A stretch of 64,000 bases of DNA from a virus. Taxonomy: Duplodnaviria; Caudoviricetes. The stretch lies in IMG/VR virus record IMGVR_UViG_3300021400_000063; one strand, written 5' to 3'. The position numbers were made by a program, and so were the translations under genes. Shown here piece by piece: positions 15,500-45,626 of the stretch (its first letter is position 1; the number at the start of each line of letters is the position of its first letter). The notes below the pieces were generated by a model. The model was not told the DNA's origin. It saw only the letters and a list, made by a program, of their open reading frames with translations, and ran no database searches.

Positions 15500-15539
15500 T
15501 TATATATTATTATAATGAATAGAATTTGTATGAATTCTA
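15500..15539 (+). promoter_or_regulatory. Early promoter plus conserved GTAT-loop leader hairpin (copy 1)
   Basis: TTATATATTATTATAATG followed by TAGAATTT-GTAT-GAATTCTA. Confidence 0.75.
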
Positions 15540-15562
15540 ATAACATTTAAAGGAGAAAAATT

Positions 15563-15871
15563 ATGGATGTTTTTGAAACTGTCTTAAATGATAGAAAACG
15601 AACACAAGAATTTCTTTTAAAATCTTTTTCTGAAGGAAAAATTTCTGAAGAAACATTTATTAAAATGGTTGGAGATTTTGATAGCAAATTTTATAAATTT
15701 TCAATAGCTCATGATGAGATGACTAATTATTTTAATTTAGCTAACAAATGTCTCGAAGCTTCTTCCAAACCTAAATCATTTATAGAATCTTTTAGTTCTA
15801 TAGCAGATTCATTTGTAAAAAGTGTCGATTTATTACAAGATCAACAGAATAATAAACAAACTAATACATAA
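15563..15871 (+). CDS. Small hypothetical protein in a terminator-bounded cassette
   Basis: 102 aa, AAGGAG RBS. Confidence 0.8.
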   Translation: MDVFETVLNDRKRTQEFLLKSFSEGKISEETFIKMVGDFDSKFYKFSIAHDEMTNYFNLANKCLEASSKPKSFIESFSSIADSFVKSVDLLQDQQNNKQTNT

Positions 15872-15933
15872 TTGTTTATTAGATTGGTTGTTAGAAGGGA
15901 ACTTTAATAGTTCCCTCTTTTTTTTCATCGAAA

Positions 15934-15946
15934 ACATTATTATATA
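15934..15946 (+). promoter_or_regulatory. Late-type promoter
   Basis: ACATTATTATATA. Confidence 0.65.
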
Positions 15947-15969
15947 CATTGTAAATAAGGAGTAATTTT

Positions 15970-18228
15970 ATGGCTCAGAATATAATTGATGCTACTGGTA
16001 CATCATTAGCTAATACAGCAAAATTCTTCTTTTACGTTAAAGGTTCCAAAGATTATCCTATTGATCAGGTAGTTTCTGATAAATTCGGATATGATAATAC
16101 TGGTGATGGAACATTCGCACAAACAGCTATCTTTGATACAAGTATTAAAGATATATTGATTAGAACTACTAATCCTAAACAGATTGATAATTTGTATAGC
16201 TTGTACAGCGATTCATCAAATGGTATTTCGGCCAAAAGTGAAAGAACAGGACTTAATATCCGTAATGATAGATCTCAAGAATATCTATCATCTATTATTA
16301 TTGATAATGGTAAGGTAATGTCTAATGAAGTTACCGAACCAACACGTTTTGTTGATCATATCGATCCTAACTATACAACTTTCGATGGTAAAACTTATAC
16401 ATTAGAAAATGTAAAATTATTTAAATCTGGTGGAAAAACAGAAAATAATATTTATCCTCTTGAACATATTTTTTGGCAGAAGATTTATACCATTTGTGAA
16501 TTTATTAAGAAGTATGAATCTGAAATTATCAATATGTATGTTGATAGTTCGCTTAAATATCCATCATTTATTAGAAATGCTTCAGATGAAAAACTTTCAG
16601 CTTGGTATGGTAGTTCTGAAAATGTAGCTGCCATGAAACGTGATCTCGAAGCTGAATCTGAAATCGGAAGATTTATTTCACTTTTCATTGGTAAATGTAC
16701 AGATAATAGTAAATATTTCCAAACTAAATATGAATCTGGTGAGGAAGTTATTGCTGGTGGTGCTATTAAATATAATCCTTTCCGTTGGAAGGAAATGACT
16801 GGAGACGATACTCTTCGTCATACAGATGGTGAAGCTCTCTCTATTGATGAAGAACAGGAAATGTTCTATAATTCTGAAGTTCTTAATCTTCAGTATGTTT
16901 ATGGAACTGCTAATTTTGAACCTTCATCTAAAGAAGGACGTATTAAGAAATTCTCTTTTGAAGTAAGGGCTAGTTATACAGATACTATTTCTAAGACTTG
17001 GGTAATTGTTTGTTATCTCGATCCTGATGCATTTGTTAATTCATCTAGTGTAGCACAATATGCTGTTTACACATATAATGATGAAGATATGGATGGTGTT
17101 GAAGGAGCAGCTGATGATAATTATGGAATTTATGATAACGATTATGCTAATGTTGCATCTGAATCAGCAACACTTAAAAATAATTTCGTTTCATCTCAAT
17201 CTGAATTCCAGAAAAATATAATTCAAGCTATTACAGATATTATGAAGGATGGAACTTATAAATATTATCAAGAGTTCCAGACTTTACGTGTTACACCTAC
17301 TATCGATTCTGAAAATAAAAAGAACTTAGTTTGGGATGCTGTAAATCATTCCATTATGCAGAAATTCTATATTTTCTACGGTAGTGAATCACAAGCTCCT
17401 ACATTAGCACAACAGATTGCTGCTGTAAAAGATTATATTAAGCGTCTCCATACAAGTGGTCATTGTCATCCAATGCAATATGATGATGACGGAAATATTA
17501 CTTATATTGGACATAGTGATACAGATCTTGATATGTTCTTATCTAAGATGTATCCTGAATTGTTCACTACAACAGAAGTTTATATTATTCCAACTAACAC
17601 ATTGATTAATAGTCTTGGCGACAGATTCGATCCAGATAACTATTTTGGAACTGCTAATATTGAAGATGCTCACGATCAGATTAAAAATCTTAATGGTGTA
17701 TTTAGTTTGTTCGAATACGCTTCAAACGGAAGAGCTTCTCTCGTATCTTCTGGAGAAAAACAGAAAAATCTTCCTCTTGAATTTATTCACATTGGTTCTC
17801 TTAATGGACAGGAAACTTCTGGACAAAATAGTTTGGATTTAAAATATCCAATGCCTTTGATTTGTACAGCTTTTGGTACAACAGATGCTAGGCCACTTAC
17901 AAGTCTTTCAGGTTTCGCTAATTACGAAACTAAGATTTTTAATTATAATCAATCTAATATGAACACATTCAATTATGCTGATAAGTTACAGATTGTTCTT
18001 ATTAAGCTTATGGAAGCAATGTTTACAAACGATAATAATGCAAGTTATTATTCATCAATTGCTGGTGTTAAAATTGATTACGAAATCGATAGAAATGCTG
18101 ATAGTGATTTACAAACTAGTGGTTATAAGAAAAATGTTGCTAAGTTTGTCATCAACAATGTTAACTTTACAGTTATTGCTCATAAGGGTAAAGCTTTTGC
18201 TAAATCTTTAAATTATGTAGAAGTATAA
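15970..18228 (+). CDS. Probable virion structural protein
   Basis: 752 aa, AAGGAG RBS, late-type promoter; function not recognised. Confidence 0.55.
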   Translation: MAQNIIDATGTSLANTAKFFFYVKGSKDYPIDQVVSDKFGYDNTGDGTFAQTAIFDTSIKDILIRTTNPKQIDNLYSLYSDSSNGISAKSERTGLNIRNDRSQEYLSSIIIDNGKVMSNEVTEPTRFVDHIDPNYTTFDGKTYTLENVKLFKSGGKTENNIYPLEHIFWQKIYTICEFIKKYESEIINMYVDSSLKYPSFIRNASDEKLSAWYGSSENVAAMKRDLEAESEIGRFISLFIGKCTDNSKYFQTKYESGEEVIAGGAIKYNPFRWKEMTGDDTLRHTDGEALSIDEEQEMFYNSEVLNLQYVYGTANFEPSSKEGRIKKFSFEVRASYTDTISKTWVIVCYLDPDAFVNSSSVAQYAVYTYNDEDMDGVEGAADDNYGIYDNDYANVASESATLKNNFVSSQSEFQKNIIQAITDIMKDGTYKYYQEFQTLRVTPTIDSENKKNLVWDAVNHSIMQKFYIFYGSESQAPTLAQQIAAVKDYIKRLHTSGHCHPMQYDDDGNITYIGHSDTDLDMFLSKMYPELFTTTEVYIIPTNTLINSLGDRFDPDNYFGTANIEDAHDQIKNLNGVFSLFEYASNGRASLVSSGEKQKNLPLEFIHIGSLNGQETSGQNSLDLKYPMPLICTAFGTTDARPLTSLSGFANYETKIFNYNQSNMNTFNYADKLQIVLIKLMEAMFTNDNNASYYSSIAGVKIDYEIDRNADSDLQTSGYKKNVAKFVINNVNFTVIAHKGKAFAKSLNYVEV

Positions 18229-18247
18229 TTTGTGAGGTAATTCCACT

Positions 18248-18970
18248 ATGATTGAAGAACTTGAATATGGTAAAAGCTATGCTATATACTTAAATAGTTT
18301 ATATGGTGGATATAAATCAAATGTACGAATAATTGGTAAGACTAATATAGATAATGTGGTTAGTAACAATGATGATGATTACAATATCTATAAAACTTAT
18401 TTTGAACCTGTTGGTTTAGGTCTTACCAGTTATTATTCGGCTATTAAACCGGAAACAACTATCTATATCGGATTAGTAGTAGATTCATTAGAACCTTATT
18501 CTTACACTGAAGAAAAAGTATTTATTCCAGAATCTTTAATAGATTTTGATAAAAGTGAAGAATATATTAAGGTTTCTAAAATAAGCTTCAATATCTATCC
18601 TATAGTAAGGAAATTTAGTACCGAAACAGATAGAGACGAATTTATAACAAAGACTAAAACTGAGTTATTAAATCGTGTAAAAGGTCTTATTGAATTTTGT
18701 AATCTTGATACAGAAGTTGAAAGTGATTATTCTGATTTATATATCACGAAAGAAGAATATGATGTTCTTGATACTGCTAGAGAATCTGTTTATAAATCAT
18801 TCCGAAAAAGAATGATTGAATTAGATAACGCTGCTCGTATCAAGGAAGCAAATTATAATACTAAACTTGCTGAGTTGGATTCTAAAATAAAAGAATATGA
18901 AAAAGCTAAGCAAGAAATGGAAAATACTAAGAATAAATATCAAGGTATGATTGATTTATTAGAAAATTAA
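18248..18970 (+). CDS. Hypothetical protein with C-terminal coiled coil
   Basis: 240 aa, GAGG RBS, co-oriented with the previous gene, terminator follows. Confidence 0.8.
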   Translation: MIEELEYGKSYAIYLNSLYGGYKSNVRIIGKTNIDNVVSNNDDDYNIYKTYFEPVGLGLTSYYSAIKPETTIYIGLVVDSLEPYSYTEEKVFIPESLIDFDKSEEYIKVSKISFNIYPIVRKFSTETDRDEFITKTKTELLNRVKGLIEFCNLDTEVESDYSDLYITKEEYDVLDTARESVYKSFRKRMIELDNAARIKEANYNTKLAELDSKIKEYEKAKQEMENTKNKYQGMIDLLEN

Positions 18971-19068
18971 TCAATTTTATAATGTAGGAGATTTATTCTC
19001 CTACATTTATATTTTTAATTATTAGCTTACATTTTTATATATTTAGTACTAAATAATAGGAGTCATAT

Positions 19069-21030
19069 ATGGCTGAAGAAAAAGAAACAAATGAACTGCC
19101 TTCTGAAGAGACAACTAAATTTTCTAAAGAAGCTGTTATTGAGACTGAAGGTAATCTTCCGGAAGATTCTGTTCCACCAAGACCAAGAGGTGCAAATGAA
19201 GCGATTGTAACTCTTGATGAAATGGCATTCAAAGAATCAAAACCTACAGAAATTACTGTAGAAAAAGCTAAAGAAGATGCTACAGATGTATCTACAGAAG
19301 AAATTGTAGATAATGCTATGAAAAAGGAAGATATTGATAAAATTGATGCAGAAGCAAAAGAATATCTTGAAAAGCATTCTAAAGAAGCTGAAATCGATTG
19401 GGATAAAATTGAATTCGAAGATGAAGAAAAGAATTTCCCAAAAATTTCTAAAGAAGAACTTGATGTTTTCTGTGCTATTTCTGAAGGTTTTATTGATCGT
19501 GAAGCTGTAGAAACATATATTCGTATCGCTCATGCTGATATTGAAAATTATCTTGAAGTTAAGAAGCTTGTAGATTCTGGTGAAGCTACAGAAGATGATA
19601 AAGAATATTATGATTCTCTTAGTAAATCTAAAGAAAATTCTCGTATTATTCTTGCATCTATTCAGCAGGATGGTAGAAAACTTGATAAAGAATTCAAGGA
19701 ATCTCGTATTGCTGAAGATTTGATTAAAGCTGTAACACTTAAAGCTTGTAGCGATTATATTGTAAAGAAATATCGTCTTAATAATTCATGGAGACCATCT
19801 TCTGATGAACGTTATAAGATTGATAATACAGAATTTATTAGAGATGAACTTCTCAATAAAATGTATATCGCTCCTCTTTTCCACAATATCATCGAGCGTG
19901 ATAGAATTAAATCTGAAGTCAGTTTAAAATATAACTTGTTTGGATCTAAATTTTATAATTCACATCTTGATGATTTTGCTGAAGCAGTTCGCGTTTATAT
20001 TCGTCAGGGAAAACTTGATTTCGATAAACTTACTATCGAAAAAGTTCTCTCTTCAGATATGAAGACTTTTGAATTTATGAGATTACCAATGGTTTGGGCT
20101 CTTAAACAATTCAATACAAGTATTCAGTCTGTAAAAGAATGGGAAATGACACCTGAAGAAGAAGAAAAAGTCTCTTCAAGAATGAATCCTAATAATTTGT
20201 TTGATGTTGAATTGAAGGAACTTGCTAACTGGATTGATGATACCATCGACCTTCTTCTCGATCCTTCTGTAACTGAAAATGGTATGAAACTTGCTATGGA
20301 TATTATTCAGAAAGATCCATTTACAAAGAAAATTGCTACCGATCCAAATTATGATTGGTCTAACAGTGAAAAAGTAATGATGGATATTGCTGAACTTATT
20401 CCTGAAAATGTTACAAAACAGAATTTCTCAGAATGGTCAGTTATTTATAAATATCTTCAGAAATATGAAAGATATTTCTTGTTCTATAAACTTGATGCAA
20501 CTAACAAATCTGATGAATTTGATGCCGATAAGAAACGTGTAAATACATTCAATGTTCTCTGTGGACTTGTTGAAGATTATTATATGTTTATGGTTGGTGA
20601 ACTTATCACTTCTATGAACAGTTTCTTGTATGAAGCTGGATATAATGGTGAAACACAGAATATTATGTTCTCAACAGTTATGAGTAATTTCATTTGTCAG
20701 CATGAACTTGGTTATCGTCAGAAACTTATTACTGAAGGTGAAGAACAGAATGTTTCTGGAGATGGTTTGTATAATCTTGCAGAAGATCTTCTTAAAGATA
20801 AGTTTACATATATTATCGGAAATAAAAACGATGATATTCTTTTAAAGAATGTAAATCTTATTGAAACTCGTCGTACTTACATTAAAGATTGTACAGAACT
20901 TATTCAGTTTATTCATTATAATCTTTCAGATGTTAAGAAAGGTGCAGAACATATTATTAAAGAATGTGATTTTGTACCTCAAATTAATAATAAATCTTCT
21001 AAGAAAAAATCTAGAAGAAATAGACGTTAA
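19069..21030 (+). CDS. Hypothetical protein (acidic N-terminus, basic C-terminal tail)
   Basis: 653 aa, AGGAG RBS; upstream 19029-19043 matches both promoter motifs. Confidence 0.85.
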   Translation: MAEEKETNELPSEETTKFSKEAVIETEGNLPEDSVPPRPRGANEAIVTLDEMAFKESKPTEITVEKAKEDATDVSTEEIVDNAMKKEDIDKIDAEAKEYLEKHSKEAEIDWDKIEFEDEEKNFPKISKEELDVFCAISEGFIDREAVETYIRIAHADIENYLEVKKLVDSGEATEDDKEYYDSLSKSKENSRIILASIQQDGRKLDKEFKESRIAEDLIKAVTLKACSDYIVKKYRLNNSWRPSSDERYKIDNTEFIRDELLNKMYIAPLFHNIIERDRIKSEVSLKYNLFGSKFYNSHLDDFAEAVRVYIRQGKLDFDKLTIEKVLSSDMKTFEFMRLPMVWALKQFNTSIQSVKEWEMTPEEEEKVSSRMNPNNLFDVELKELANWIDDTIDLLLDPSVTENGMKLAMDIIQKDPFTKKIATDPNYDWSNSEKVMMDIAELIPENVTKQNFSEWSVIYKYLQKYERYFLFYKLDATNKSDEFDADKKRVNTFNVLCGLVEDYYMFMVGELITSMNSFLYEAGYNGETQNIMFSTVMSNFICQHELGYRQKLITEGEEQNVSGDGLYNLAEDLLKDKFTYIIGNKNDDILLKNVNLIETRRTYIKDCTELIQFIHYNLSDVKKGAEHIIKECDFVPQINNKSSKKKSRRNRR

Positions 21031-21084
21031 TTAAATGATATCGTTGGCTTCATGCCAACGATATCTTATTTTCTTTTAAGGTTG

Positions 21085-21097
21085 ACATTTTAATATA
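21085..21097 (+). promoter_or_regulatory. Late-type promoter
   Basis: ACATTTTAATATA right after terminator 21037-21070. Confidence 0.65.
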
Positions 21098-21116
21098 TCT
21101 CTAAAGGAGACTTAAT

Positions 21117-21905
21117 ATGGCTAATGAATTAAATAGTCTTTATGATAAATATTTTAAAGAAGAATCTGACGGATCATTAATATTTAATGGTGAACGTCTT
21201 ATTGTAAGAATTCCTCCTTATTTTTATGAAAGTGGAGTAACTAGAGTAAATCAAACTATTGTAGAAACAATGGGAATTTTTGAAGGATTAATTTTTGATG
21301 ATCCTGATGAAGATGATTTAACTAAATATTCTCATAAGTTTACAATGAAGCTTCCGGCAAATATTATTATGAAGCCTTCTCATATAAATGATTCTATTCA
21401 AATTATAGAAGAAGTTGAAAATGAGACTTTGAAAAAAGAAAAATCTATAGATTTAATTTTCTTAAAAGGTGATACATTTATTGTAAATGTTAATATTGTA
21501 CAAGATTTGGATGTTTCAGATAAATACATAGATATTCTTCTTAAAGCACATATGCCTAAAACAATTACTTATGAAGAATTAGCTATATTGTGGCAAAAAT
21601 GTGCAGCTATTAATGGATCTGGAGATCTTGAATCTAACTTAGCAACATTTGAATTGATTTGTATGAATCTTACAAGAGATCCTAAAGATTATACAGTTTT
21701 ATTTAGAAATGTTTATGAAAAATATTATGCTGCTGGAATAAAAAATGGAACTATGATTAACTATGAACATATTCCTAAATATACATCAGGATTCACATCA
21801 TTAACTTCATGGGATCCTAAATATGGTATTACCGTTGCTATGGAACACACTCGTGGTGAAAATAAGAAAGATATTGTTTCTCCTATTGAGGAAGCTATTA
21901 AATAG
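21117..21905 (+). CDS. Probable extreme C-terminal beta'-like fragment of virion RNA polymerase
   Basis: C-terminal TSGFTSLTSWDPKYGITVAM...SPIEEAI resembles the RpoC end (SFLSAASFQETTRVLTEAA...LKENV); FELICMNLTRD resembles HIEVIVRQM; late-type promoter. Confidence 0.55.
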   Translation: MANELNSLYDKYFKEESDGSLIFNGERLIVRIPPYFYESGVTRVNQTIVETMGIFEGLIFDDPDEDDLTKYSHKFTMKLPANIIMKPSHINDSIQIIEEVENETLKKEKSIDLIFLKGDTFIVNVNIVQDLDVSDKYIDILLKAHMPKTITYEELAILWQKCAAINGSGDLESNLATFELICMNLTRDPKDYTVLFRNVYEKYYAAGIKNGTMINYEHIPKYTSGFTSLTSWDPKYGITVAMEHTRGENKKDIVSPIEEAIK

Positions 21906-21914
21906 GAGTTATTT

Positions 21915-22886
21915 ATGGGTATTTTTGATTACGAACGTTTAAAAAGCACAGTTAATAATTTTAGTTATAATCTTTTTAATTTTCCAGCAGATTTTTCAAA
22001 ATCTATTATTTTAGAAAATTCTTATGATGGGATAGTTTATGAAAAACGAACCACTGAGTTTATAACTTCTTATGATAGTTCTAATAAACCTGTTAAAAAA
22101 GAAGTAAATAGATTTAATCCTATACTTGATTTGAAAATTATGTCTGAAGAAAAAGCTAAAGCATTGCTTATTAAAAACGGTGCAACTCAATTTGCTTATA
22201 GAGTTAAAGAAATAGGTACTTCATCATCTGAATCTGTAGCTAATATTTCTAAATTTACTAAATTAGTTTCTAATTCAAAGTTTTTTATTCCTATTGCTAG
22301 ATCTTTACAAAAAACTAAGCCTACAAATATATTCAATGATAATATATTTAAAGTTACTAAACTTCGTGAAGATATATACTTTATAAAAGTTTCAATTAAG
22401 CAACAAGATAAACCTAGAATAAATACAATTTTAGCTGTCAATGATAGAACTTTCTGGAAACGATTTACTATAAGATATACAGATCCTATAACAAATGAAG
22501 AAACAAAATTAAATGCTAAAGATTTTGATTATAGTGCTTCAGATATAATTACCGATTGTATAAATAATCCATCTAATTTTTCTATAAAAATGTATTACAT
22601 TTATGATGAAAAAGATAGGCAAATTGAATATTTTAATACAACTTATCCTGATTTAGAAAATCCTAAGGATAGTGAAAGTTTTATAGATCCTGAAATAGCT
22701 GTAGTTGAATTTGTTGGAGTTTCACATTATAATAAACGAACTTGGTTAGCTATTCTTATTAGTGATGGTAGTGGTATAATTTATACAGATAATACCGACA
22801 TTCCTAATTTAGAATCATATAAAACTGTAAATTCTAATACATATTATGCTGGTGATGAATCAGAAATATGTATGGCATATCGATAA
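21915..22886 (+). CDS. Hypothetical protein (late operon)
   Basis: 323 aa, AGGAG RBS, terminator 22893-22920 follows. Confidence 0.8.
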   Translation: MGIFDYERLKSTVNNFSYNLFNFPADFSKSIILENSYDGIVYEKRTTEFITSYDSSNKPVKKEVNRFNPILDLKIMSEEKAKALLIKNGATQFAYRVKEIGTSSSESVANISKFTKLVSNSKFFIPIARSLQKTKPTNIFNDNIFKVTKLREDIYFIKVSIKQQDKPRINTILAVNDRTFWKRFTIRYTDPITNEETKLNAKDFDYSASDIITDCINNPSNFSIKMYYIYDEKDRQIEYFNTTYPDLENPKDSESFIDPEIAVVEFVGVSHYNKRTWLAILISDGSGIIYTDNTDIPNLESYKTVNSNTYYAGDESEICMAYR

Positions 22887-22935
22887 AATGATAAACTGAG
22901 GCATTTTAGCCTCAGTTTTTCTTTATTATTCAAAG

Positions 22936-22948
22936 ACAAATTTATATA
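22936..22948 (+). promoter_or_regulatory. Late-type promoter
   Basis: ACAAATTTATATA. Confidence 0.65.
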
Positions 22949-22965
22949 CTTACAGAGGTAACTAT

Positions 22966-24651
22966 ATGTTAGATTCAATGTCGATTAACTTAGTTAATCC
23001 TAATAAAGATATAGAAATTAATGGCTGGAAAGAAGTAACATCAACTTTATATTTTGTTCCTAGTACATCAGAATTACATCCTGAAGGAATGTTTTCTGAA
23101 GAAATATTTGGTGCTCCTGGTACAGAAGATCGTAAAACTAAATGGGGATGGGTAAATTTAAATGATGTATTTATGAATCCTCATGCTTTTTATGTTTTAA
23201 AACGATTGAAAAAAGGTATAGCAAATGATATGAAACTTGGTATCGGAAGATACTATGTTGATAAAACTGGTGAACTTACTAAAATTGATCCTGGCGAAAC
23301 TGTTCCAGCTGATGCAGTTTATAAAAATACTGGTACTGGAATTACTTGGTTGAAAGAAGCATGGCCTTATATTTCTTGGAGAATTACAAATGATATGAGT
23401 AAAGCTGCTAAAACACGTAGAAAGTGGCTAAAAGCTTATACCGTAGATGAAATTTTCTGGGATAAATTATTAATAATGCCTGCTTGGTACCGTGATGTTA
23501 AATATTCATCTGATGGAAGTTCTAAAAGAAATATTATAAATCAGTTATATGCTAAGATATTACGTTTAGCGGATATTATTAAAAATCTCGATGATATTTC
23601 ATTCATGGATGATCCAAATGAACCAAAACGTTCAATCTCTCATGTAAAAATGCAAGATGCTCTTTATGAGATTTATGAATTTTATATGAAAAAGATCGGT
23701 GGTGCTGACGGTTTTGCTAATAAATTCGTAGTTGGTAAAGCAACAGACTATGGTGCTCGTTTGGTTATTTCTCCGCCAGATTTTAACACAGAACATTATA
23801 CACAATGTGAAGCAGATTTCTTCCACTCTTCAACACCATTAGCTACAGCAGCAAATATTTTTGCTCCGTTTATGATTTTCGGCATTTCAAGATGGATTCA
23901 AAATTATGTATCTGGTAGAATATCTATTAATTATTATGATTTTGAACAAAAGAAATTAATTGAAGCTCCACTTGATAGTACATGGATTGATGAATTTACA
24001 ACAGATTCTATCAGAAATGTTTTAGACAATTATAAAAAATCTAAACATTATCGTGTAGAAAAAGTAACACTTAAAGGTGAAAATGGATTTAGAATTCCAT
24101 TAACAGTTCGTATGAATGTTGTTGATGGTAAACCATCTTTTTCTACAGATATTACAGAAGATGATGAAAATCCTAGTTCATATAGAGAACTTACATATTG
24201 TGAATTACTTTATATTGTAGCTATGGATAATATTAAAAATAAATCTATTTATAATACACGATATCCGTTGACTACATATAATAATACTTATTGTGGTCTT
24301 ATGAATATTATTCCTTGTAACGAATACACTTCTGTTTTCTTTAACGGTGTATTATATCCACGTTATCCTATTTTGAATTACAAAACATCAGAAGATATTG
24401 AAGGTATGTTTACAGATACAATGCGAATGTTCTCAACATATCTTGCTGCGATGGGTGCGGATTACGATGGTGACCAGATTTCTACACAAGGTGTATTTAC
24501 ACAAGAAGGTAATGAAGACGTTTATAAACATATGAAAGAAATTTCAAATGTTGTTGGTATAAATGGAAATGTTATGCGTGAATTCCCTAATGTTATTCCA
24601 CATGGTATTTACGGTTTAACATATATGATTCCAAAACCAGTAGCTAAATAG
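22966..24651 (+). CDS. rpoC: RNA polymerase beta' N-terminal subunit with catalytic motif (probably virion RNAP)
   Basis: EGMFSEEIFG, GKATDYGARLVISP (cf. GKRVDYSGRSVI), NTRYP, catalytic GADYDGDQ (cf. NADFDGD). Confidence 0.92.
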   Translation: MLDSMSINLVNPNKDIEINGWKEVTSTLYFVPSTSELHPEGMFSEEIFGAPGTEDRKTKWGWVNLNDVFMNPHAFYVLKRLKKGIANDMKLGIGRYYVDKTGELTKIDPGETVPADAVYKNTGTGITWLKEAWPYISWRITNDMSKAAKTRRKWLKAYTVDEIFWDKLLIMPAWYRDVKYSSDGSSKRNIINQLYAKILRLADIIKNLDDISFMDDPNEPKRSISHVKMQDALYEIYEFYMKKIGGADGFANKFVVGKATDYGARLVISPPDFNTEHYTQCEADFFHSSTPLATAANIFAPFMIFGISRWIQNYVSGRISINYYDFEQKKLIEAPLDSTWIDEFTTDSIRNVLDNYKKSKHYRVEKVTLKGENGFRIPLTVRMNVVDGKPSFSTDITEDDENPSSYRELTYCELLYIVAMDNIKNKSIYNTRYPLTTYNNTYCGLMNIIPCNEYTSVFFNGVLYPRYPILNYKTSEDIEGMFTDTMRMFSTYLAAMGADYDGDQISTQGVFTQEGNEDVYKHMKEISNVVGINGNVMREFPNVIPHGIYGLTYMIPKPVAK

Positions 24652-24662
24652 GAGTTTGACAG

Positions 24663-27600
24663 ATGCCTAAAAGTAATAATAGTAATTTAGATATTCTAAA
24701 TAATGATGCTAATCTTAGTATTTATGCGGATCATTTAGGATTAACCCCACAATTCATTCAAGATAATAGAAATCAACTTGATCGAATTGAAAAGATGGTA
24801 TCTAAGAGTTTGAAAAATACTGATGAGGATGATCCTAATTATGTATTTAATACTATGAAGCAGCTTCAAAATCTTACTAAAGAAACATTCATAGCTGATT
24901 CATATGATACATCTTTAAATAGAAATTTTGGTGGAATGTACGGAGATCCAACTACAAGAGATGGTTTTCGTATGGTATATAGCGATAATGATAATAAAGA
25001 AGATTTGGAAACTTATAATTTCCATGCTTCTATTTTTTCATCATATCGTAATCTTGTTTCAGAATATCGTAATGTAGCACGTCTTATTCCAACAGTTTAT
25101 AGATGTGCTGATATGAAAGCTAGAGATATTTTAGCAATCAATGAAATTACAAAACGTTCTGTTTCGAATGTATATGTTCCTAGTACATTAAATCCCGATG
25201 ATAATGATCCTTCAGTATTATCTGAAAACCCTATCAATGAACGTATTGAAAAAGAAATTCTTGATAGATATAGTATTGAAGATAGACTTCCTAGATATTT
25301 ACGTACTGCTCTTATTGAAGGTGCTAAACCTGTAGTTGTTTTCCCATACACAGATATTATGGAAATGGCTAAAATTAGTATGCGTAATTTCTCACAAAAA
25401 TATGCAGACTATAAGTTCAGAACTTCTGCTAATTCTACAGAAGCTTATGAAGATGTTATTTCAGATTATCATTCTAGGGAACATCGTTTAATTCCTAATT
25501 TCAATGATCCTAAATATAAAATCATGTCTACAGAATCTGTAGACGGTGAAGAAAAATTAACATTTAATAAGAAAAATTATACAGATTTAAGAGATTCAGT
25601 AATTGACAAATTCGTATCAAAAGAAGATCTTAATGAATATATGGCTCGTGGTATTGAAGATGTTACCAATAATATCGAGCGTGTTAGAAATGAAAGATTG
25701 TTTGATATTTACGGATCTAATGTAATTAATAAAACTGAAAAAGTTAATGAAGTTAATGAAAAATTCCGTGAATTCCAAGATAAAGTAAAAGTTGATGGTT
25801 CATTGTCTGAACATTTTAAAGAACAAATCTTTAATGCTGTTAAAACAATCGATAGTAATATCGAATTCTATGATCAGTCTGAATTGGCTATGGGTGTTTC
25901 TATTAATAACTTCCGTAGACTTATGCAGATGTCAGCTTATCATGAAAATCCTAAAGCTGGATTAAAAGCATTCAATGCTAGACTTCAAGATGAAAAACGT
26001 CTTAAAGAACGTGATAAGAATTATGATCAAGATCCAATAGTTAAAGATGGAATGGAAATTGATAACGGACCTAAATCAGTACTTGATGAATTCGCATCAG
26101 ATTTTTCACCTAATGAATATTCTTTATTAAACGATTGTTTGATTAAAGAATATGATGCTGAAGATGTTATTCCTGTAATCGTTGCAGGTAGACATGTAGG
26201 TTACTACATCATTGAAACTTCACCATATACAGGAAACGTTGAATCTGTAAATAAACGTAATTGTAACTTTACAGATATGTTCCTCAATCTTGGTATCAAT
26301 AATGATTTTGCTATATCTCCTTCACCAGCTACATCTGGTTCATTTGGAGCGGGTGTTCAGGGAGTTCCTATGGGTGGAATTGCTGCTGTATCAGATTTAC
26401 CTTCGGTAGGTATTACAGGCGCAGGTTCAATGGCTCTTGGAGCAGGATTGGATATAGCAGGTTTTGATGTTGGTGTGGCTGGCGATGATGCTATTCGTCG
26501 TAATAATATCATGAAAAAGATTATGTTTAATGTACTTAAACAAAAAATTCATAGACATGATATTGAAGACGATGAAACATTTATGGATACTATTATGGCT
26601 CTTATTAGAGATGGAGCTATTGTACAGAATCGTATTAAGATTATGTATATTCCTGAAAAATATATGTGTTATTTTACACCTGGTTTGGATGGAAATGGTA
26701 TTCCTGAATCATTTATGAAAAACTGTTTATTCACATGTTATGAGAAGATTCTTGTAAATATGAATAATATCATGACTCGTCTTACTCGTACAGGACAGCG
26801 TGATAAGATTACAGTTAATGTTGGTAAAGCTAAAAACTTTGGTTATTCTATCAGAGCTATTGAAAATGCTTTAACCACTCGTAAATTAAATGTTGAATCT
26901 CCATTCACTTCATTATCAAGAGTTCTTAAATCAGCATCATTGTCTGAAACAATCGTTGTACCAATTTATGATGGTGAACAATTGTTTGAATATGAAGATA
27001 TCTCACAGCATAATATGATAGATCAACAAGATGATCTTGAACAAAGATTGGAAAATGATATTGTTACACAGCTTAAATGTCCTGTAACTATTACCAATCC
27101 TTATCAAGAAGAAGATTTTGCTTCATTAGCAGCTTCTAGAAATGCTGAATATCGTTTTGATCTTATTAAACTTCAGGGAGTATTTGGTAATATTGCTACT
27201 AAATTTATCAAATTACTTATTGTTGGTTCTGGATTGTATAAGAAAATTAAAGATGGAAATAAAGATTTCTCTCTTTCAGAAATTCTTGTACGCTTTGCTC
27301 CTCCTGAAAGTTTGAATATGCAAAATGCTAATAATTTATTCGCAACCGTTCAATCTTACATCGATAATATTATTGGTATCGCTATCAATCCTGATGATAA
27401 TACTGAAGTTACCAATTCTACAAGATTTAAATTTAAACAAAAACTTTATCAGCAACTTATGCCTGGTATCGGTTTGGATAAATATATACGTCTTGCACAG
27501 AATCTTAGACCTGAAGCTAATAAAACCGCTATTGAAAACAGAATAAATAGATCGGTTAATGATCAAATTGTTAATACTGAATTCAAACCTATAATTGTTA

Positions 27601-27674
27601 CACCTGATGGTAAAGTAACAACTAATGACGGTTTGAATCAAGGTATTGGTAATGATGAAGCTGGTGGTTTCTAA
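24663..27674 (+). CDS. Portal protein (jumbo-phage type, T4 gp20-like core)
   Basis: IMTRLTRTGQRDKITVNVG resembles gp20 YRITRAPDRRVWYVDTG; LKCPVT...RNAEYRFDLIKLQ resembles LRIPLSR...RDELKF...LQ; 1003 aa; late operon. Confidence 0.7.
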   Translation: MPKSNNSNLDILNNDANLSIYADHLGLTPQFIQDNRNQLDRIEKMVSKSLKNTDEDDPNYVFNTMKQLQNLTKETFIADSYDTSLNRNFGGMYGDPTTRDGFRMVYSDNDNKEDLETYNFHASIFSSYRNLVSEYRNVARLIPTVYRCADMKARDILAINEITKRSVSNVYVPSTLNPDDNDPSVLSENPINERIEKEILDRYSIEDRLPRYLRTALIEGAKPVVVFPYTDIMEMAKISMRNFSQKYADYKFRTSANSTEAYEDVISDYHSREHRLIPNFNDPKYKIMSTESVDGEEKLTFNKKNYTDLRDSVIDKFVSKEDLNEYMARGIEDVTNNIERVRNERLFDIYGSNVINKTEKVNEVNEKFREFQDKVKVDGSLSEHFKEQIFNAVKTIDSNIEFYDQSELAMGVSINNFRRLMQMSAYHENPKAGLKAFNARLQDEKRLKERDKNYDQDPIVKDGMEIDNGPKSVLDEFASDFSPNEYSLLNDCLIKEYDAEDVIPVIVAGRHVGYYIIETSPYTGNVESVNKRNCNFTDMFLNLGINNDFAISPSPATSGSFGAGVQGVPMGGIAAVSDLPSVGITGAGSMALGAGLDIAGFDVGVAGDDAIRRNNIMKKIMFNVLKQKIHRHDIEDDETFMDTIMALIRDGAIVQNRIKIMYIPEKYMCYFTPGLDGNGIPESFMKNCLFTCYEKILVNMNNIMTRLTRTGQRDKITVNVGKAKNFGYSIRAIENALTTRKLNVESPFTSLSRVLKSASLSETIVVPIYDGEQLFEYEDISQHNMIDQQDDLEQRLENDIVTQLKCPVTITNPYQEEDFASLAASRNAEYRFDLIKLQGVFGNIATKFIKLLIVGSGLYKKIKDGNKDFSLSEILVRFAPPESLNMQNANNLFATVQSYIDNIIGIAINPDDNTEVTNSTRFKFKQKLYQQLMPGIGLDKYIRLAQNLRPEANKTAIENRINRSVNDQIVNTEFKPIIVTPDGKVTTNDGLNQGIGNDEAGGF

Positions 27675-27680
27675 ATAATT

Positions 27681-27711
27681 AAACAAGAGGGAATCTATTC
27701 CCTCTTGTTTT
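27681..27711 (+). terminator. Intrinsic terminator fused to an early promoter motif (27710-27718)
   Basis: AAACAAGAGGGAA / TTCCCTCTTGTTTT then TATATATT. Confidence 0.8.
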
Positions 27712-27738
27712 ATATATTATTATAATGAGGTGGTAAAT

Positions 27739-28236
27739 ATGAAAAGATTATCAAAAAATTATGATGTTAGATTGAGTTCTAACCTTATTGAAAGATCTAA
27801 ATATTTAGATCTTTCAAAATCTTTCGGATGGCCTGTAATACATATTCTTGGTCTGCGTTATAAGGATATCACAATGAATGGTTTGACCGAAGATAATAAA
27901 ATCTCTTCGGAAGACCTAGTAGGATTTTCTAAATCTGTTTATGAAAACAGTAAGAAATTTAGAAAATTCTGCAAACAATACTTCAAGAGAGTTAACAAAC
28001 AACTCTCTGAAGAAGCTCCAGATGGATGGTTGAAATATCATCTTTCTGGTGTTAAAAACCCACTTGCAGTTTATGCTGAACTTGGTGGGGTTGTTGAATA
28101 TGATTGTAAGAGAAAGTCTTTCATAAAGACTCTTTTACAAGCTATTCGAAACTTTTTCAAAGTTTTATGGAATTTCTATAAGGCTTTGATTAGAAAAATC
28201 ATCTATAGTTTGAAACCTGTAAAAGTTTCATATTAA
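27739..28236 (+). CDS. Hypothetical basic protein with C-terminal amphipathic helix
   Basis: ATG 27739 after GAGGTGG; single-gene early unit. Confidence 0.8.
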   Translation: MKRLSKNYDVRLSSNLIERSKYLDLSKSFGWPVIHILGLRYKDITMNGLTEDNKISSEDLVGFSKSVYENSKKFRKFCKQYFKRVNKQLSEEAPDGWLKYHLSGVKNPLAVYAELGGVVEYDCKRKSFIKTLLQAIRNFFKVLWNFYKALIRKIIYSLKPVKVSY

Positions 28237-28293
28237 TTGATGATTTTAAAAAAGAAGGAGAAATTTTAGTATCCTTCTTTTTTTTCTAAATTG

Positions 28294-28306
28294 ACATTTC
28301 TATATA
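28294..28306 (+). promoter_or_regulatory. Late-type promoter
   Basis: ACATTTCTATATA. Confidence 0.65.
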
Positions 28307-28335
28307 TTACGATTAAAACATTAGGGATAACAATT

Positions 28336-28785
28336 ATGAATTTGGCTAAAATTTTTAGTTTCGAATCATATGAATTTACACCTAAATACGCTTATAGTAC
28401 TATTAAAGATTTTACAAATAAGCATAAAAACCAAAATTCATTTGATAAATTAAAAGATTCAATGTTATCCTTAGAGCACATAAAACAAGATTCGTATGTC
28501 TTGCAAATAAATAGTGGTAATTGGGATAGATCAGTTGAATCCTATTTCTTTTCGATTTATTCTGATAAATCGGGTTATTATCTTAGAACTGATGATAATA
28601 AAATTAAACATTTTCATAATAAAGAAAATGCTTTAAAATATAATTTAGCTAAGATAATGACTAATAAATATTCTTGTGAAAAGATTCGTTATTTTTGTTA
28701 TGAATTTAATGAAATGGATGAATCTCTTGAAAGTTACGACTATATAAATTATGCCTATGATTATGGTAGGAGGATTATTATATAA
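28336..28785 (+). CDS. Hypothetical protein with KIFSFE leader (possible head-packaged protein)
   Basis: ATG 28336 after AGGGA; N-terminus MNLAKIFSFESYE. Confidence 0.75.
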   Translation: MNLAKIFSFESYEFTPKYAYSTIKDFTNKHKNQNSFDKLKDSMLSLEHIKQDSYVLQINSGNWDRSVESYFFSIYSDKSGYYLRTDDNKIKHFHNKENALKYNLAKIMTNKYSCEKIRYFCYEFNEMDESLESYDYINYAYDYGRRIII

Positions 28786-30640: not shown

Positions 30641-30643
30641 TAT

Positions 30644-31781: not shown

Positions 31782-31863
31782 AATGAAAGAGGGATTTTAT
31801 ATCCCTCTTTTTTTGTAAATAAATGTTTTTTTTTGATATATTATAATGATGAAGGAGATGAAT

Positions 31864-32652: not shown

Positions 32653-32690
32653 ATACAAAGAGAGGATATAGATCCTCTCTTTTTTTTCTT

Positions 32691-32752
32691 TTATATATTA
32701 TTATAATGTAAAGAATTCGTATGAGTTCTTAATATTATAATTTTATTAAGGA
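32691..32752 (+). promoter_or_regulatory. Early promoter plus conserved GTAT-loop leader hairpin (copy 2)
   Basis: TTATATATTATTATAATGTA-AAGAATTC-GTAT-GAGTTCTT-AATATTATAATTTTATTAAGGA. Confidence 0.8.
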
Positions 32753-32762
32753 GAAATTTTGT

Positions 32763-33179
32763 ATGAAATTTATTTTCGATCAAAAAACAAATAGTTTTCA
32801 AATGAAACTTGAACCTGAGGAATTAGAATTAGCTAAAACTAATCCTGAAAGTTTTAAAGCTTTATTAGAACAACAAAATAAAGCTAGAGAAGCTATAGCT
32901 AATAATCTTATCGAACAAATTAAAGAACAGAACAAAAGTCGATTGGAAACTGAAAAAATTCATATTGCTGAAAGAGAAGCTACTCGAAAAGCTGAATTCG
33001 AAGAACGTGAAATTAAACGTAAAGCTGAATTCGAAGAACGTGAGCAGATACGACAACAAGAACTTGAATTGGAACGTTTAAATGTTCAAAAATCTCAACT
33101 TGCTTGGGATAGAATCATTTATGGTGGAGAAGTTATATTGGATAAAGTTCTTCCAGATCAAACATCTAGTAGTTTTTAA
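32763..33179 (+). CDS. Small coiled-coil protein, paralog of 45635-46120
   Basis: Shares L..ELxLAxxNPESFKxxL..Q with 45635; 11-aa repeat RKAEFEEREIK. Confidence 0.85.
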   Translation: MKFIFDQKTNSFQMKLEPEELELAKTNPESFKALLEQQNKAREAIANNLIEQIKEQNKSRLETEKIHIAEREATRKAEFEEREIKRKAEFEEREQIRQQELELERLNVQKSQLAWDRIIYGGEVILDKVLPDQTSSSF

Positions 33180-33284
33180 AACACAATGAGAAGAAGGCTA
33201 TTTTAATTAATAGCTTTCTTTTTTTTTATTTATATATTTAAATACTAGAAAACAATAATGTGTAATATATATAGGAGAATTTAA

Positions 33285-35276
33285 ATGACTTTACTTGACG
33301 AATATAAACAGAAAGTATTCGAAACTCTTAAAACAACCTATAATGGAAAAATCAATGATGAATGGTTGAAAAATTATGTAAATGACATTGTCGAACGTAA
33401 AACAGCCGGAAAGAAATTAGTAGCTCATTGTAGAAATTTGTATAGATATGAATGGCAACTTGAAAGAGATCCAAATACAATTCCATTGGAAATTGAAAAA
33501 GATAAATTGAATATTCTTGCAAATGGTACTTTAACAGAGAATTGGAACCCTGCAAGTTATTTCATTATTACTGATTGGATGGATTCTCGTGCTGTATTTA
33601 AGAAGAAAATGCTTGAAGCTAAAAATGCAGGTAATATGGATGATTTCCGCGAATATAATAATAAACAGAATAAGGTAAAAGCTAATACTAACTCGATTTA
33701 CGGAGCTTCTACAATGCAATCCTCATTCATTTCGAATATTGATATGGGTGGATCTATTACAGCACAGGCTCGTAACTTTATTTCTGAACAAGTATTTACT
33801 ATTGAAAGATTCTTAGCTGGAAATTTTGCATTTGAAAATGTAAATGAAGTAATGACTTGGATTAATCAGATTTTTAAAATCAAAGAATCATTATTTACTC
33901 CAGAAGCTCTTTCGATTATCGATTATATTCCTACTCCAGAAGATTGTAGAACCCGTTTCATTCTTATGACTAAAGATGTTGCTGGTATTAGAAAAAGTCT
34001 TAATAAATTCACACAATCGTCTTTCTTAATGTTTGAAATGATGCCAGATTGGAAACGTATAGCTTTTTATTATGCAAACAATCCTGTAGAATTAATTAGA
34101 CGTAATAAGAAAGTTTATGATTTAGTTAATAGACTTATTGAAAATGGAATCGAATTTATCAATCCTTATGAAATTCCAGAAGGAATGAAAACTGATCTGG
34201 AACAACTTACAGATTATATGAAAATCTTTGCTTTTGCAACTGTTATTAATTATAATCGTGTTGAAAAGTATAAGACTCGTAAAAGAAAGTGTTGTGTTGT
34301 TGGAGATACAGATTCAACAATGCCATCACTTTATGAAATAGTTTTGAATACATTGAAAATATATGGTAAAGAAAATCTTATGGATGATATGAATGTACAG
34401 ATTAGAATGACGATGATATTCGTATCTTTGGTTACTACACTTCTCGATGAGTGTTGCCATAATTATGTAGAATGCTGTAATTCATTCCATCCTGAAGACA
34501 GATTCTTTATGTATATGAAAAATGAATTCTTCTTCCCAATTATTCTGTTATTCCCTGTAAAGAAAAATTATATAGGAATTCAGACTATTCAGGAAGGAAA
34601 AATGATTCCTGAAGAAGCACAGTTAGCTATTACTGGTCGTTCTTTAGGTTCATCTGGTCTCAATGAATATGTATCTACACATATCATTGATCTTCTTCAG
34701 AATATGGTTCTAAGAGCCAATAAGTATGATCCTGTAAACATTCTACATGGTGTCCATGAGATCGAAGATCATATTGATAAATCTATTCAAGAAGGAGATA
34801 AAACTTTTGGTATTTTTACAAGATACAATGGTATTAATAATATCAAAGATCCTGTAAGAACTACTGCTGCAAGAGCAAGTTGTATTTGGAATCTTTTATA
34901 TCCTGACGATTACATCGTTCCTGGAGATGCTGTATACATGTTTGATACAAATCTCATGACTGAAGAAGATCTGGAACGTATCGATCCTAAGTTCAATGAT
35001 ATAAAAGAAAAGATTAGAAAAAATGTATTTAGAGTTAATTCTTTAGGTATGGATTTTTCTAGTTTTGGTCTGAAAGCATTTGCTATTCCAGTAAATGGTA
35101 ATACTAAGAAGTTACCAGAATGGGTAATTCCATTTATTCGTACAGATTCAATGATTCAAAAACATTTACAGCCTATTACATCTTTGTATTCTTCATTATT
35201 GTTATCTCCAGCTAGATATCAAGCAGAAGGAAGTAGTACTAAGAAAATGGGCACAAGCACACTCATAAGATTCTAG
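33285..35276 (+). CDS. Family B DNA polymerase, polymerase-domain subunit (phiKZ-like split PolB)
   Basis: Motif B KVKANTNSIYG, motif C VGDTDS, KKNY; no exonuclease motifs recognised; early motif at 33230-33238. Confidence 0.88.
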   Translation: MTLLDEYKQKVFETLKTTYNGKINDEWLKNYVNDIVERKTAGKKLVAHCRNLYRYEWQLERDPNTIPLEIEKDKLNILANGTLTENWNPASYFIITDWMDSRAVFKKKMLEAKNAGNMDDFREYNNKQNKVKANTNSIYGASTMQSSFISNIDMGGSITAQARNFISEQVFTIERFLAGNFAFENVNEVMTWINQIFKIKESLFTPEALSIIDYIPTPEDCRTRFILMTKDVAGIRKSLNKFTQSSFLMFEMMPDWKRIAFYYANNPVELIRRNKKVYDLVNRLIENGIEFINPYEIPEGMKTDLEQLTDYMKIFAFATVINYNRVEKYKTRKRKCCVVGDTDSTMPSLYEIVLNTLKIYGKENLMDDMNVQIRMTMIFVSLVTTLLDECCHNYVECCNSFHPEDRFFMYMKNEFFFPIILLFPVKKNYIGIQTIQEGKMIPEEAQLAITGRSLGSSGLNEYVSTHIIDLLQNMVLRANKYDPVNILHGVHEIEDHIDKSIQEGDKTFGIFTRYNGINNIKDPVRTTAARASCIWNLLYPDDYIVPGDAVYMFDTNLMTEEDLERIDPKFNDIKEKIRKNVFRVNSLGMDFSSFGLKAFAIPVNGNTKKLPEWVIPFIRTDSMIQKHLQPITSLYSSLLLSPARYQAEGSSTKKMGTSTLIRF

Positions 35277-44431: not shown

Positions 44432-44487
44432 AACTTTGTGAAGTAGTATAACTTTCTTATATATTTTATATAGGAAGGAGGTTAACT

Positions 44488-44751
44488 ATGAAAGGAATTA
44501 ATGTTAACCCCCGAAGGGATTTTGTTAGTGCTAGATATGGAAAGTTTGCTTCTAGTGCTAACAAATCATCATTTGGGGCAGGAAGTAGTAGATCTTTAGG
44601 TTTTAGAAGATCTGATCCTGGACACGAATCATCTAAAAATGATTTCATGTCGAAATTAAAAAATAATTCTACACCAGGAAATGTTTATATTCCATCAAAT
44701 GGTGTCGAATCAATTAATGTCAACAATTATATTGAAAATTTGTTGATGTAA
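44488..44751 (+). CDS. Small hypothetical protein
   Basis: 87 aa, AGGAGG RBS, early motif at 44457-44465, terminator after. Confidence 0.8.
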   Translation: MKGINVNPRRDFVSARYGKFASSANKSSFGAGSSRSLGFRRSDPGHESSKNDFMSKLKNNSTPGNVYIPSNGVESINVNNYIENLLM

Positions 44752-44805
44752 ATTAATTAAAGAACGAGTTTTAATAAACTCGTTCTTTTTTTCGAGGTCA
44801 AATTT

Positions 44806-45531
44806 ATGAGAAATAATAAAACAGTTTCTCAAGATCAAGTAATTAGAGAATTATATCATTCTCTTGAAAATCTTAAAAAAGATGCTTATAAAACTATTGA
44901 AAGAATTTGGAAAAAGGTTGGTTATAAACCAGATCCTTATAGTTCAATAGATTTAATTGATGTCTTTGTAATGTTGATGTTTGGTGAATCTAAATATGAT
45001 GAAAATATTACTAAGAAAATAGATTTTAATAAAAATAAAAATCTCATCAAGAATAGTATCCTTTCAATGGGATTTGAAAATTCTATAATTATTCTTAGAG
45101 AAACTTCACATTTTGTAGAAGATTTCCTATCGAAATTTGCTGATAAATTTAGAACTCTTAACGGTAGCGATTTCAATGATCCTGATTCATATCTTACAGA
45201 AGATGAAGTGAAACGTTTAGATGAATTTATTTTTGATCAATCTTGGATGGCAACTCATTGTAATTCAAATATTATTTCAATGAGTACAATGTATAGAAAT
45301 ATTTCATCAAGACCTTTATCTAAAGTAAAACGTGATTCATTAAAAAGATATTTCTTTAATCATGTTTATGATCTTAAAAACAATGTTAAAATTTTCGATA
45401 AAGACGATATGTTCTTTGGAGAAACTAATTTAATCATGACTTTTTTTGATTATATCTGTGATTATATTTTCGGTGATTTTATTACTACTTACAATGTTTT
45501 GGACACACTTTTTAAATCATTTATTCAGTAA
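44806..45531 (+). CDS. Hypothetical protein
   Basis: 241 aa, GAGG RBS. Confidence 0.8.
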   Translation: MRNNKTVSQDQVIRELYHSLENLKKDAYKTIERIWKKVGYKPDPYSSIDLIDVFVMLMFGESKYDENITKKIDFNKNKNLIKNSILSMGFENSIIILRETSHFVEDFLSKFADKFRTLNGSDFNDPDSYLTEDEVKRLDEFIFDQSWMATHCNSNIISMSTMYRNISSRPLSKVKRDSLKRYFFNHVYDLKNNVKIFDKDDMFFGETNLIMTFFDYICDYIFGDFITTYNVLDTLFKSFIQ

Positions 45532-45564
45532 AATTAAAAGTGGACATTTTTGTCCACTTTTCTT

Positions 45565-45626
45565 TTATATATTATTATAATGTAAAGAATTTGTATAAGT
45601 TCTTAATATTATAATTTTATTAAGGA
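45565..45626 (+). promoter_or_regulatory. Early promoter plus conserved GTAT-loop leader hairpin (copy 3)
   Basis: Matches 32691-32752 except for one compensatory C-G to T-A pair in the stem. Confidence 0.8.

Follow-up and report, generated by a model that had tools for sequence, protein, structure and literature searches.

The DNA analysed here, hereafter the window, is a 64,000-nucleotide stretch of an uncultured virus of the Caudoviricetes (IMG/VR record IMGVR_UViG_3300021400_000063), and our subject is a small hairpin that it carries three times, on each occasion directly behind a promoter and upstream of a small gene. The window has 29% G+C, with almost every gene on the same strand, and encodes a divergent family-B DNA polymerase (33285-35276), whose top relatives are those of the Bacillus phages PBS1/AR9 and of other jumbo phages, as well as a tubulin-like protein, gyrase A, a helicase and a chaperonin-like protein. 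A megablast search of the window against phage records returned no match. Its sister phage, G001, is a 276-kb IMG/VR contig (Ga0256405_10000087) that is collinear over the full window at 93-95% identity; window positions 30016-30622 have no counterpart in G001, which carries ~850 bp of unlike sequence at that place. No multisubunit RNA-polymerase genes were seen in the window itself, and the matches to such genes, two beta-like and one beta'-like, come from G001 only. Because this collinear genome encodes beta/beta'-like genes and the DNA polymerase matches PBS1/AR9, we take the window to derive from an uncultured AR9/PBS1-like jumbo phage with multisubunit polymerases of its own.

Three leader hairpins and their promoters

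The hairpins and the promoters that precede them are located as follows:

15501..15517, plus strand: early promoter of cassette 1, a 10-mer and a 6-nt spacer, with the predicted +1 G at 15517
15520..15539, plus strand: hairpin copy 1, core stem 15521-15527/15532-15538, loop 15528-15531, at +4 to +23; 40.1 bits; -5.0 kcal/mol
32692..32708, plus strand: early promoter of cassette 2, a 10-mer and a 6-nt spacer, with the predicted +1 G at 32708
32711..32730, plus strand: hairpin copy 2, with a C-G closing pair and one U-G pair; 46.9 bits; -7.1 kcal/mol
45566..45582, plus strand: early promoter of cassette 3, with the predicted +1 G at 45582
45585..45604, plus strand: hairpin copy 3, with a U-A closing pair and one U-G pair; 45.6 bits

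Three 20-nt hairpins, each made of an 8-bp stem and closed by a GTAT loop, had been described in the initial annotation; all are present where it placed them, each behind an identical 18-mer. This 18-mer occurs in 4 exact copies in the window, and 12 matches are found when up to 3 mismatches are allowed, against 1.4 expected. Equally borne out were the close likeness of copies 2 and 3, which agree over ~70 nt from the promoter through the ribosome-binding site with the two closing-pair bases as their sole differences, the divergence of the proteins encoded behind these two copies (28% identity), and the lack of the hairpin at the remaining early promoters of the window (27711, 31433, 50853 and others). 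When RNAalifold was applied to 19 leaders, the GTAT hairpin was the only conserved structure predicted. The ribosome-binding site begins 13-45 nt past the stem, the spacer measuring 13-25 nt in the copies of the window.

The motif ahead of the hairpins, a 10-mer followed by a 6-nt spacer and a G, corresponds to the consensus of the AR9-type early promoters used by the virion RNA polymerase. In AR9 these promoters read AAATATATATTAT-(6N)-G, and the G has been mapped as +1 by differential RNA sequencing and primer extension (Lavysh et al. 2017, PMC5312081, Table S2); the two phages share the 10-mer core, the 6-nt spacer and the G start, but the sequence upstream of the core is A-rich in AR9 and T-rich in the window phage. 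An unexplained motif in the early 5' untranslated regions of AR9 is also reported there (Fig. S3). Among the exact 10-mers of G001, G stands at +1 in 26 of 31 and T at -1 in 28 of 31, and the spacer hexamer is variable. At least eight promoters have a ribosome-binding site that opens with the +1 G itself, the start codon following 8-13 nt further on, and transcription cannot start downstream of this G, because the ribosome-binding site would otherwise be cut off. By homology with AR9, the transcription start can be placed at the G at 15517, 32708 and 45582, in which case the predicted mRNA would open with 3-4 unpaired nucleotides and carry the core stem at +5 to +22. The initial annotation had singled out the case of a start downstream of the stem; on this homology the stem would instead lie inside the transcript.

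A reading of the TATAAT hexamer as the -10 element of a sigma-70 promoter was considered and rejected: there is no usable -35 element, the spacer hexamer varies, matches are not enriched, and ribosome-binding sites that begin at the predicted +1 in many promoters also speak against it. Over positions 15000-34000 of the window, sigma-70-like matches number 128 against 127 expected, while terminator-like hairpins number 19 against 3.9 expected, i.e. a 5x enrichment, which together fits a phage that makes no use of host-type promoters.

Further copies keep their position and their pairing

Copies beyond the window were gathered by pattern scans of IMG/VR and metagenome contigs, by a protein-guided locus search, and from contigs encoding relatives of the 102-aa protein encoded behind copy 1, which yielded 32 distinct leader sequences, with nine copies in G001 alone. 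A covariance model built from 24 copies and run on the window and G001 gave 39-47 bits for the 12 copies of these two sequences, and the next match, at 21 bits, lies inside a gene; all 12 copies sit right behind a promoter at a constant offset, and none was found away from one. One G001 leader, with its start at 50433, resembles a decayed copy with a 7-nt insertion. An IMG/VR search in which three inner pairs were left free found no additional variants, and the matches to a looser pattern were mostly due to chance. Among metagenome contigs, the scan also returned many matches of no relation to the family. Rfam gave no match at gathering thresholds across the window and, in permissive mode on the hairpin, noise of at most 17 bits, in agreement with the earlier suggestion of novelty: the hairpin element is undescribed, and it is restricted to a small clade of jumbo phages from gut or rumen.

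Two further sets of hairpins were encountered. About 30 human-gut contigs (L151-L224) and contig L169 carry a perfect 8-bp hairpin at the same offset and were not counted as members. They share the 10-mer, the 6-nt spacer and the G and differ in stem interior and loop, and no ribosome-binding site precedes the next ATG; they were left out because their GC content is 36-37%, the motif occurs once per 14 kb, and the search pattern itself forced half of the stem. Their hairpins may reflect chance or a like design in another phage group. In a more distant AT-rich phage (IMGVR_UViG_3300035516_000233; L094:1207 and 1849), the same 10-mer is followed by leaders that start with 7-8-bp hairpins at +3, one of which has a stem resembling that of the GTAT-hairpin family, one base shorter on each arm.

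Pairs were counted in 22 distinct copies, and substitutions were surveyed in up to 32. The earlier statement that every difference preserves pairing describes the seven-pair core well, where 153 of 154 cells are paired, but it fails for one C-A closing pair and for the outer, eighth pair, which is A-U in 11 copies, U-A in 4 and unpaired in 7, leaving a solid stem of 7 bp. As the outer pair is often broken and its state follows two leader subtypes, its flip carries little weight. The closing pair is U-G in 9 copies, C-G in 8, U-A in 4 and C-A in 1 (contig L171). Covariation judged by shuffling is modest, with the observed values reached in 17-22 of 500 shuffles. Nine of the 14 core positions vary across the family, and the nine changes are all transitions that keep the pair: five sites show A to G in A-U pairs, one shows C to U in the G-C pair, two show U to C, which is confined to positions facing G, and one shows G to A facing U. 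In the flank columns, transversions occur at 23 of 28 variable sites (Fisher p 1.6e-5 versus the stem), and within the stem the changes of Watson-Crick pairs fall 6:0 on the side that gives a wobble rather than a mismatch (p 0.016). Even with three substitutions in its 5' arm, a strongly diverged copy (L178, position 8969) still forms seven pairs. With wobble-compatible transitions alone found in the core stem, the proposed selection on a plus-strand structure that tolerates G-U pairs has held up, and the substitution spectrum therefore indicates a structure that is single-stranded and, most simply, made of RNA, which we regard as the most likely nature of the selected element.

An element acting as DNA offers a different account. 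A palindromic operator or promoter-proximal structure over the start site, possibly an imperfect inverted repeat spanning -9 to +35, could bind a repressor dimer or the polymerase and thereby time or limit early transcription. The core does constitute an 18-bp dyad at +5..+22, with 6-bp half-sites and a 6-bp centre in a typical roadblock position, and variation is concentrated near the dyad centre. The substitutions, however, are not indifferent to the strand, given the 6:0 asymmetry and the restriction of U to C to sites opposite G, which is unexpected for a double-stranded site and makes a double-stranded operator less likely; the helices of other early leaders (see below), with loops of 7-30 nt, would in addition make poor protein dyads.

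This account also draws on the sequence behind the hairpin, where the initial annotation had seen a possible extension of the stem and where copy 2 shows a conserved block:

32733..32741, plus strand: conserved leader block, a palindromic 9-mer that recurs within the promoter, complementary to -9..+3

Copies 2 and 3 and the majority of relatives do show such complementarity, which covers 9 of the 12 positions where shuffled sequences reach 5.8, and folding -17..+58 as RNA gives -16.4 and -14.9 kcal/mol (z -4.1 and -2.9). The proposed extension is lacking in copy 1 and its orthologue, and its 5' half lies upstream of the predicted start; since this half is untranscribed promoter DNA, the extended stem cannot form in the primary transcript. 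Complementarity that reaches into the promoter would suit a DNA element, although it also fits a read-through RNA, and with the 9-mer being itself a palindromic promoter part it may be a by-product of a partial promoter repeat or of a recombination scar. Covariation between promoter spacer and downstream block, judged by eye, is inconsistent. Taken together, we consider an element acting as DNA improbable.

Nucleotide diversity is 0.39 just upstream of the promoter, 0.01 in its 10-mer, 0.09 in the spacer, 0.09-0.13 in stem and loop and 0.47 in the leader behind the hairpin, i.e. 4-5x lower in the hairpin than in the flanking leader. The loop occurs as GTAT, GCAT, ATAT and ATAC, which differ by transitions only and keep to a purine-pyrimidine-A-pyrimidine pattern. 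The idea that ATAC arose by inversion of the loop was dropped, as two transitions by way of the intermediate ATAT explain it equally well.

Cassettes and their turnover

In the window, each copy belongs to a unit in which a terminator-like hairpin with a T run, the promoter, the GTAT hairpin, a spacer, a strong ribosome-binding site, a small gene and a terminator follow one another. The remaining parts of the three units are:

15461..15491, plus strand: intrinsic-terminator-like hairpin and T run before cassette 1, 13 pairs, 5 of them GC, with a T tail; core repeated at 15896-15916
15563..15871, plus strand: small early gene of family P2, 102 aa, predicted helical hairpin; ribosome-binding site 15552-15555
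32657..32682, plus strand: terminator-like hairpin and T run before cassette 2
32763..33179, plus strand: small early gene of family P1, 138 aa; ribosome-binding site 32750-32753, terminator 33188-33223
45536..45561, plus strand: terminator-like hairpin and T run before cassette 3, read off the sequence
45635..46120, plus strand: small early gene of family P1, 161 aa
45582..46147, plus strand: body of cassette 3 (hairpin, gene and 5' half of the terminator), absent from G001 and bounded by a 9-mer at 45573-45581 and 46148-46156

The genes behind all copies fall into three protein families without assigned function, P1, P2 and P3; those of the window are small early genes, as the initial annotation had it, but they belong to paralogous families and are not unrelated singletons. 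P1, with the window members at 32763 and 45635, combines a conserved motif at the N-terminus with a coiled coil and a hydrophobic stretch at the C-terminus, and its alignment proved too divergent for use in the locus search. P2 (~103 aa), to which the gene at 15563 belongs, has 86 clusters of relatives in metagenomes and a structure predicted as a helical hairpin (predicted local distance difference test, pLDDT, 84.5), for which a fold search gave no match at E <= 0.001; searches of Pfam, PHROGs and Atlas with P1 and P2 gave nothing. P3, found outside the window, has 304 aa and matches phrog_4285 ('transposase', E 6e-31). Its gene (L038:12840-13754, minus strand; L006:9347-10261) has a leader with a GTAT-type hairpin and a second hairpin, the latter showing a compensatory U-A to G-C change in L178, and is followed in L038 and L006 by an array of two alternating short repeats. 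The leader subtypes largely track the protein family, and the exceptions show that leaders have been exchanged.

Comparison with G001 reveals gains and losses of whole units, in line with the earlier proposal of a mobile family of promoter-gene cassettes. The body of cassette 3 is missing from G001, and the junction lies in a 9-mer common to the promoter and the loop of the downstream terminator. Conversely, G001 carries an extra cassette of ~415 bp at 118409-117994, with a hairpin leader and a gene for a 95-aa protein of family P1, exactly at the position of the window promoter 27711 (27708-27727), and the promoter is duplicated at this insertion. Cassette 1 (430 bp) is bracketed by a 49-nt direct repeat (15466-15514/15896-15944) that is 86% identical, and fully so over its first 30 nt, which comprise the terminator and T run; in the second copy (15896-15944) the promoter is disrupted. 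The repeat looks like the footprint of a cassette insertion or a substrate for excision.

This arrangement recalls the PeSL (promoter-early stem-loop) cassettes of the T4-type phages RB49 and phi1, in which a repeated terminator hairpin, a strong early promoter and a ribosome-binding site precede small genes (Arbiol et al. 2010, PMC2839356; PMC4122927). In both systems a composite repeated motif stands before small genes without assigned function, the junctions of indels and replacements between sister phages fall in the repeated motif (here cassette 3, the insertion at 27711 and the 49-nt repeat), and flanking direct repeats could excise the cassette. The PeSL promoter, however, is of the host sigma-70 type, whereas that of the window is of the virion-polymerase type. 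The stem-loop of PeSL is rich in GC, is situated in or ahead of the promoter and serves as the terminator; in the window this falls to a separate GC-rich terminator upstream, and the GTAT hairpin, AU-rich and devoid of a T run, is found downstream of +1.

Such turnover raises the question of whether the hairpin has any function of its own, or is merely a passenger of the promoter module that recent duplication and gene conversion have kept alike. Over 70 nt the leaders of copies 2 and 3 differ at two positions, while their G001 orthologues differ from each other; this is a signature of conversion and suggests that gene conversion within the window genome made the two copies alike. The restriction of the element to one small clade likewise agrees with a passenger. 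A passenger should nevertheless not be conserved asymmetrically about the promoter, as the hairpin is (0.39 upstream, 0.09-0.13 in the hairpin, 0.47 behind it), and orthologous metagenome copies have changed only by pair-keeping transitions while their proteins drifted. We thus regard the absence of any own function as the least probable of the explanations discussed here.

A candidate role at the 5' end of early mRNAs

The reading that we tentatively favour is that the hairpin is a leader stem-loop that protects the 5' end of early mRNAs made from AR9-like virion-polymerase promoters, carried within a self-contained cassette. The virion RNA polymerase would start the early mRNA, and the 7-bp stem with its 4-nt loop would form at +5 to +22. 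The leaders in question, at 46-78 nt, would be too long for an initiating ribosome to cover the 5' end, and the hairpin would instead shield it against 5'-end-dependent decay, whether through an RppH-type pyrophosphohydrolase, RNase J or the entry of RNase E/Y; early genes with short leaders would be protected by a ribosome-binding site at or near the 5' end. The cassettes themselves would be duplicated, inserted and deleted through recombination at repeated promoter and terminator sequences, and a protein may additionally read the hairpin, given its constrained loop.

The two modes of protection named here have precedents. Classical 5' stabilisers comprise 5' stem-loops, as in the leaders of E. 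coli ompA and papA and of B. subtilis aprE, and 5'-proximal ribosome binding, as in the polypurine element of phage SP82 and in ermC, and RppH needs unpaired 5' nucleotides (reviewed in PMC3997798). Like the ompA, papA and aprE hairpins, the GTAT hairpin is short, lies a few nucleotides from the predicted 5' end and is upstream of, and separate from, the ribosome-binding site, and pairing is kept, with unrelated hairpins at this place in other leaders of the phage, although the loop and four stem pairs of the GTAT family are conserved in sequence as well; the SP82/ermC design, with the ribosome-binding site at the 5' end, is found in short leaders of the same phage genome. In contrast to ompA, papA and aprE, the phage stem is AU-rich and weak, exists in multiple copies, has a constrained loop and 3-4 unpaired nucleotides before it, and is made by a virion polymerase, and its role is predicted.

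Evidence for a division of labour by leader length comes from a survey of those promoters of the window and G001 that have a G start and are T-rich upstream. In all 27 leaders of at least 45 nt, which represent 12 unrelated sequence families, a helix begins within the first 13 nt, whereas 24 of the 25 leaders of at most 40 nt have no helix and carry the ribosome-binding site at +1 to +29; this contrast is partly built in, as short leaders lack room for a helix and the test is lenient, and to that extent it counts less in favour of protection. Under a strict test, which demands that an uninterrupted helix of at least 7 or at least 8 bp start within 5 nt, 6 or 5 of the 12 families qualify, where the background rates are 17.5% and 8% (p 0.01 and 0.002), and the families that fail have mostly interrupted or slightly later helices. 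The long early leaders of G001 (L028-L041) also carry 5'-proximal hairpins of at least 11 further families unrelated to this one (for example with starts at 32302, 193080, 238311, 259612; 226297, 226752; 192781, 205865; 24809; 149383; 43012), among them a 12-13-bp GC-rich stem at +10 that exists in four copies whose interiors differ compensatorily.

Several further observations weigh against protection of the 5' end, or against it as the whole explanation. The early leaders of AR9, where starts have been mapped, show no equivalent hairpin and no leader rule, and the rule would therefore be specific to the clade of the window and G001. The start site is itself borrowed from AR9, a distant relative of an uncultured phage, and the substitution spectrum is no strict proof of RNA, as G-T wobbles are tolerated in single-stranded DNA as well. 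The hairpin is weak (-3.4 to -7.3 kcal/mol, z about -0.3 to -3 and often above -2), and 3-4 unpaired 5' nucleotides are borderline for full protection, BsRppH acting on at least 2. A stabiliser for which any hairpin would do is not expected to have a constrained loop or four stem pairs that are invariant in 32 copies, and it leaves the conserved block behind the hairpin unexplained. Finally, at L235:590-700 (JGI 3300041558), a perfect hairpin precedes a P2-family gene where the consensus promoter is degenerate or missing.

Some of these observations would be accounted for by a sequence-specific RNA operator or tag, whose stem and loop are recognised by a phage or host protein on the mRNAs of P1, P2 and P3, bringing their translation, decay, processing or localisation under joint control. 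Stem and loop are about as conserved as the promoter spacer while the flanking leader diverges, the loop varies by transitions only, a single hairpin heads three unrelated protein families among which leader subtypes have been swapped, and L235 retains it without a consensus promoter. The operators of the MS2 and Q-beta coat proteins and of T4 RegA and gp32 overlap the ribosome-binding site or start codon. The GTAT hairpin is like them in being a small hairpin with a constrained 4-nt loop on a phage mRNA, and hence a candidate for recognition by a protein, but unlike the MS2, RegA or gp32-type operators it overlaps neither the ribosome-binding site nor the start codon and is set 17-50 nt upstream, never closer than 17 nt to the ribosome-binding site. 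No candidate binding protein was found, P2 being a plain helical hairpin without informative fold match and P1 being unannotated; the unrelated hairpins at the same place in other early leaders suggest that structure matters rather than one sequence; and part of the conservation may stem from young age and, as for copies 2 and 3, from gene conversion. We find an operator or tag of this kind possible but rather doubtful, and somewhat more doubtful still an address tag in the strict sense, in which a dedicated protein of phage or host reads the loop on P1/P2/P3 virion-polymerase transcripts and so defines an early regulon or a sorting or processing signal, to which the inverted repeat reaching into the promoter might add a layer at the level of DNA. 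To the regulon marked by a protein-binding operator, or the export signal, that the initial annotation had envisaged, we prefer 5'-end protection of long-leader mRNAs, which explains more of the data. [quoted passage not shown]

One could also speculate that the hairpin works as a translational switch, its pyrimidine-rich 3' arm being an anti-ribosome-binding-site that the 5' arm keeps occupied, such that loss or capture of the 5' arm would leave the 3' arm free to mask the site and turn the gene off. The minimum-energy fold of the copy 3 leader indeed pairs the 3' arm with the ribosome-binding site, the mean accessibility of this site in silico over 32 leaders falls from 0.57 to 0.34 without the 5' arm and is 0.62 without the whole hairpin, and several substitutions in the 5' arm increase its likeness to a ribosome-binding site. 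No effect is seen, however, in window copies 1 and 2 or in about half of all copies, RNAalifold shows no conserved alternative pairing, and any purine-rich stem arm resembles a ribosome-binding site, all of which makes a switch very unlikely.

Returning to the protective leader stem-loop, whose stabilising function we infer, the design unites two known ideas, a 5' stem-loop leader and PeSL-like cassettes, in the new setting of AR9-like virion-polymerase promoters, and it is accordingly a further instance of an established design and no new principle. Post-transcriptional control in jumbo phages with their own multisubunit RNA polymerases has, to our knowledge, hardly been explored, and if the hairpin is a stabiliser, it would also offer a small module for building expression cassettes that rely on these polymerases.

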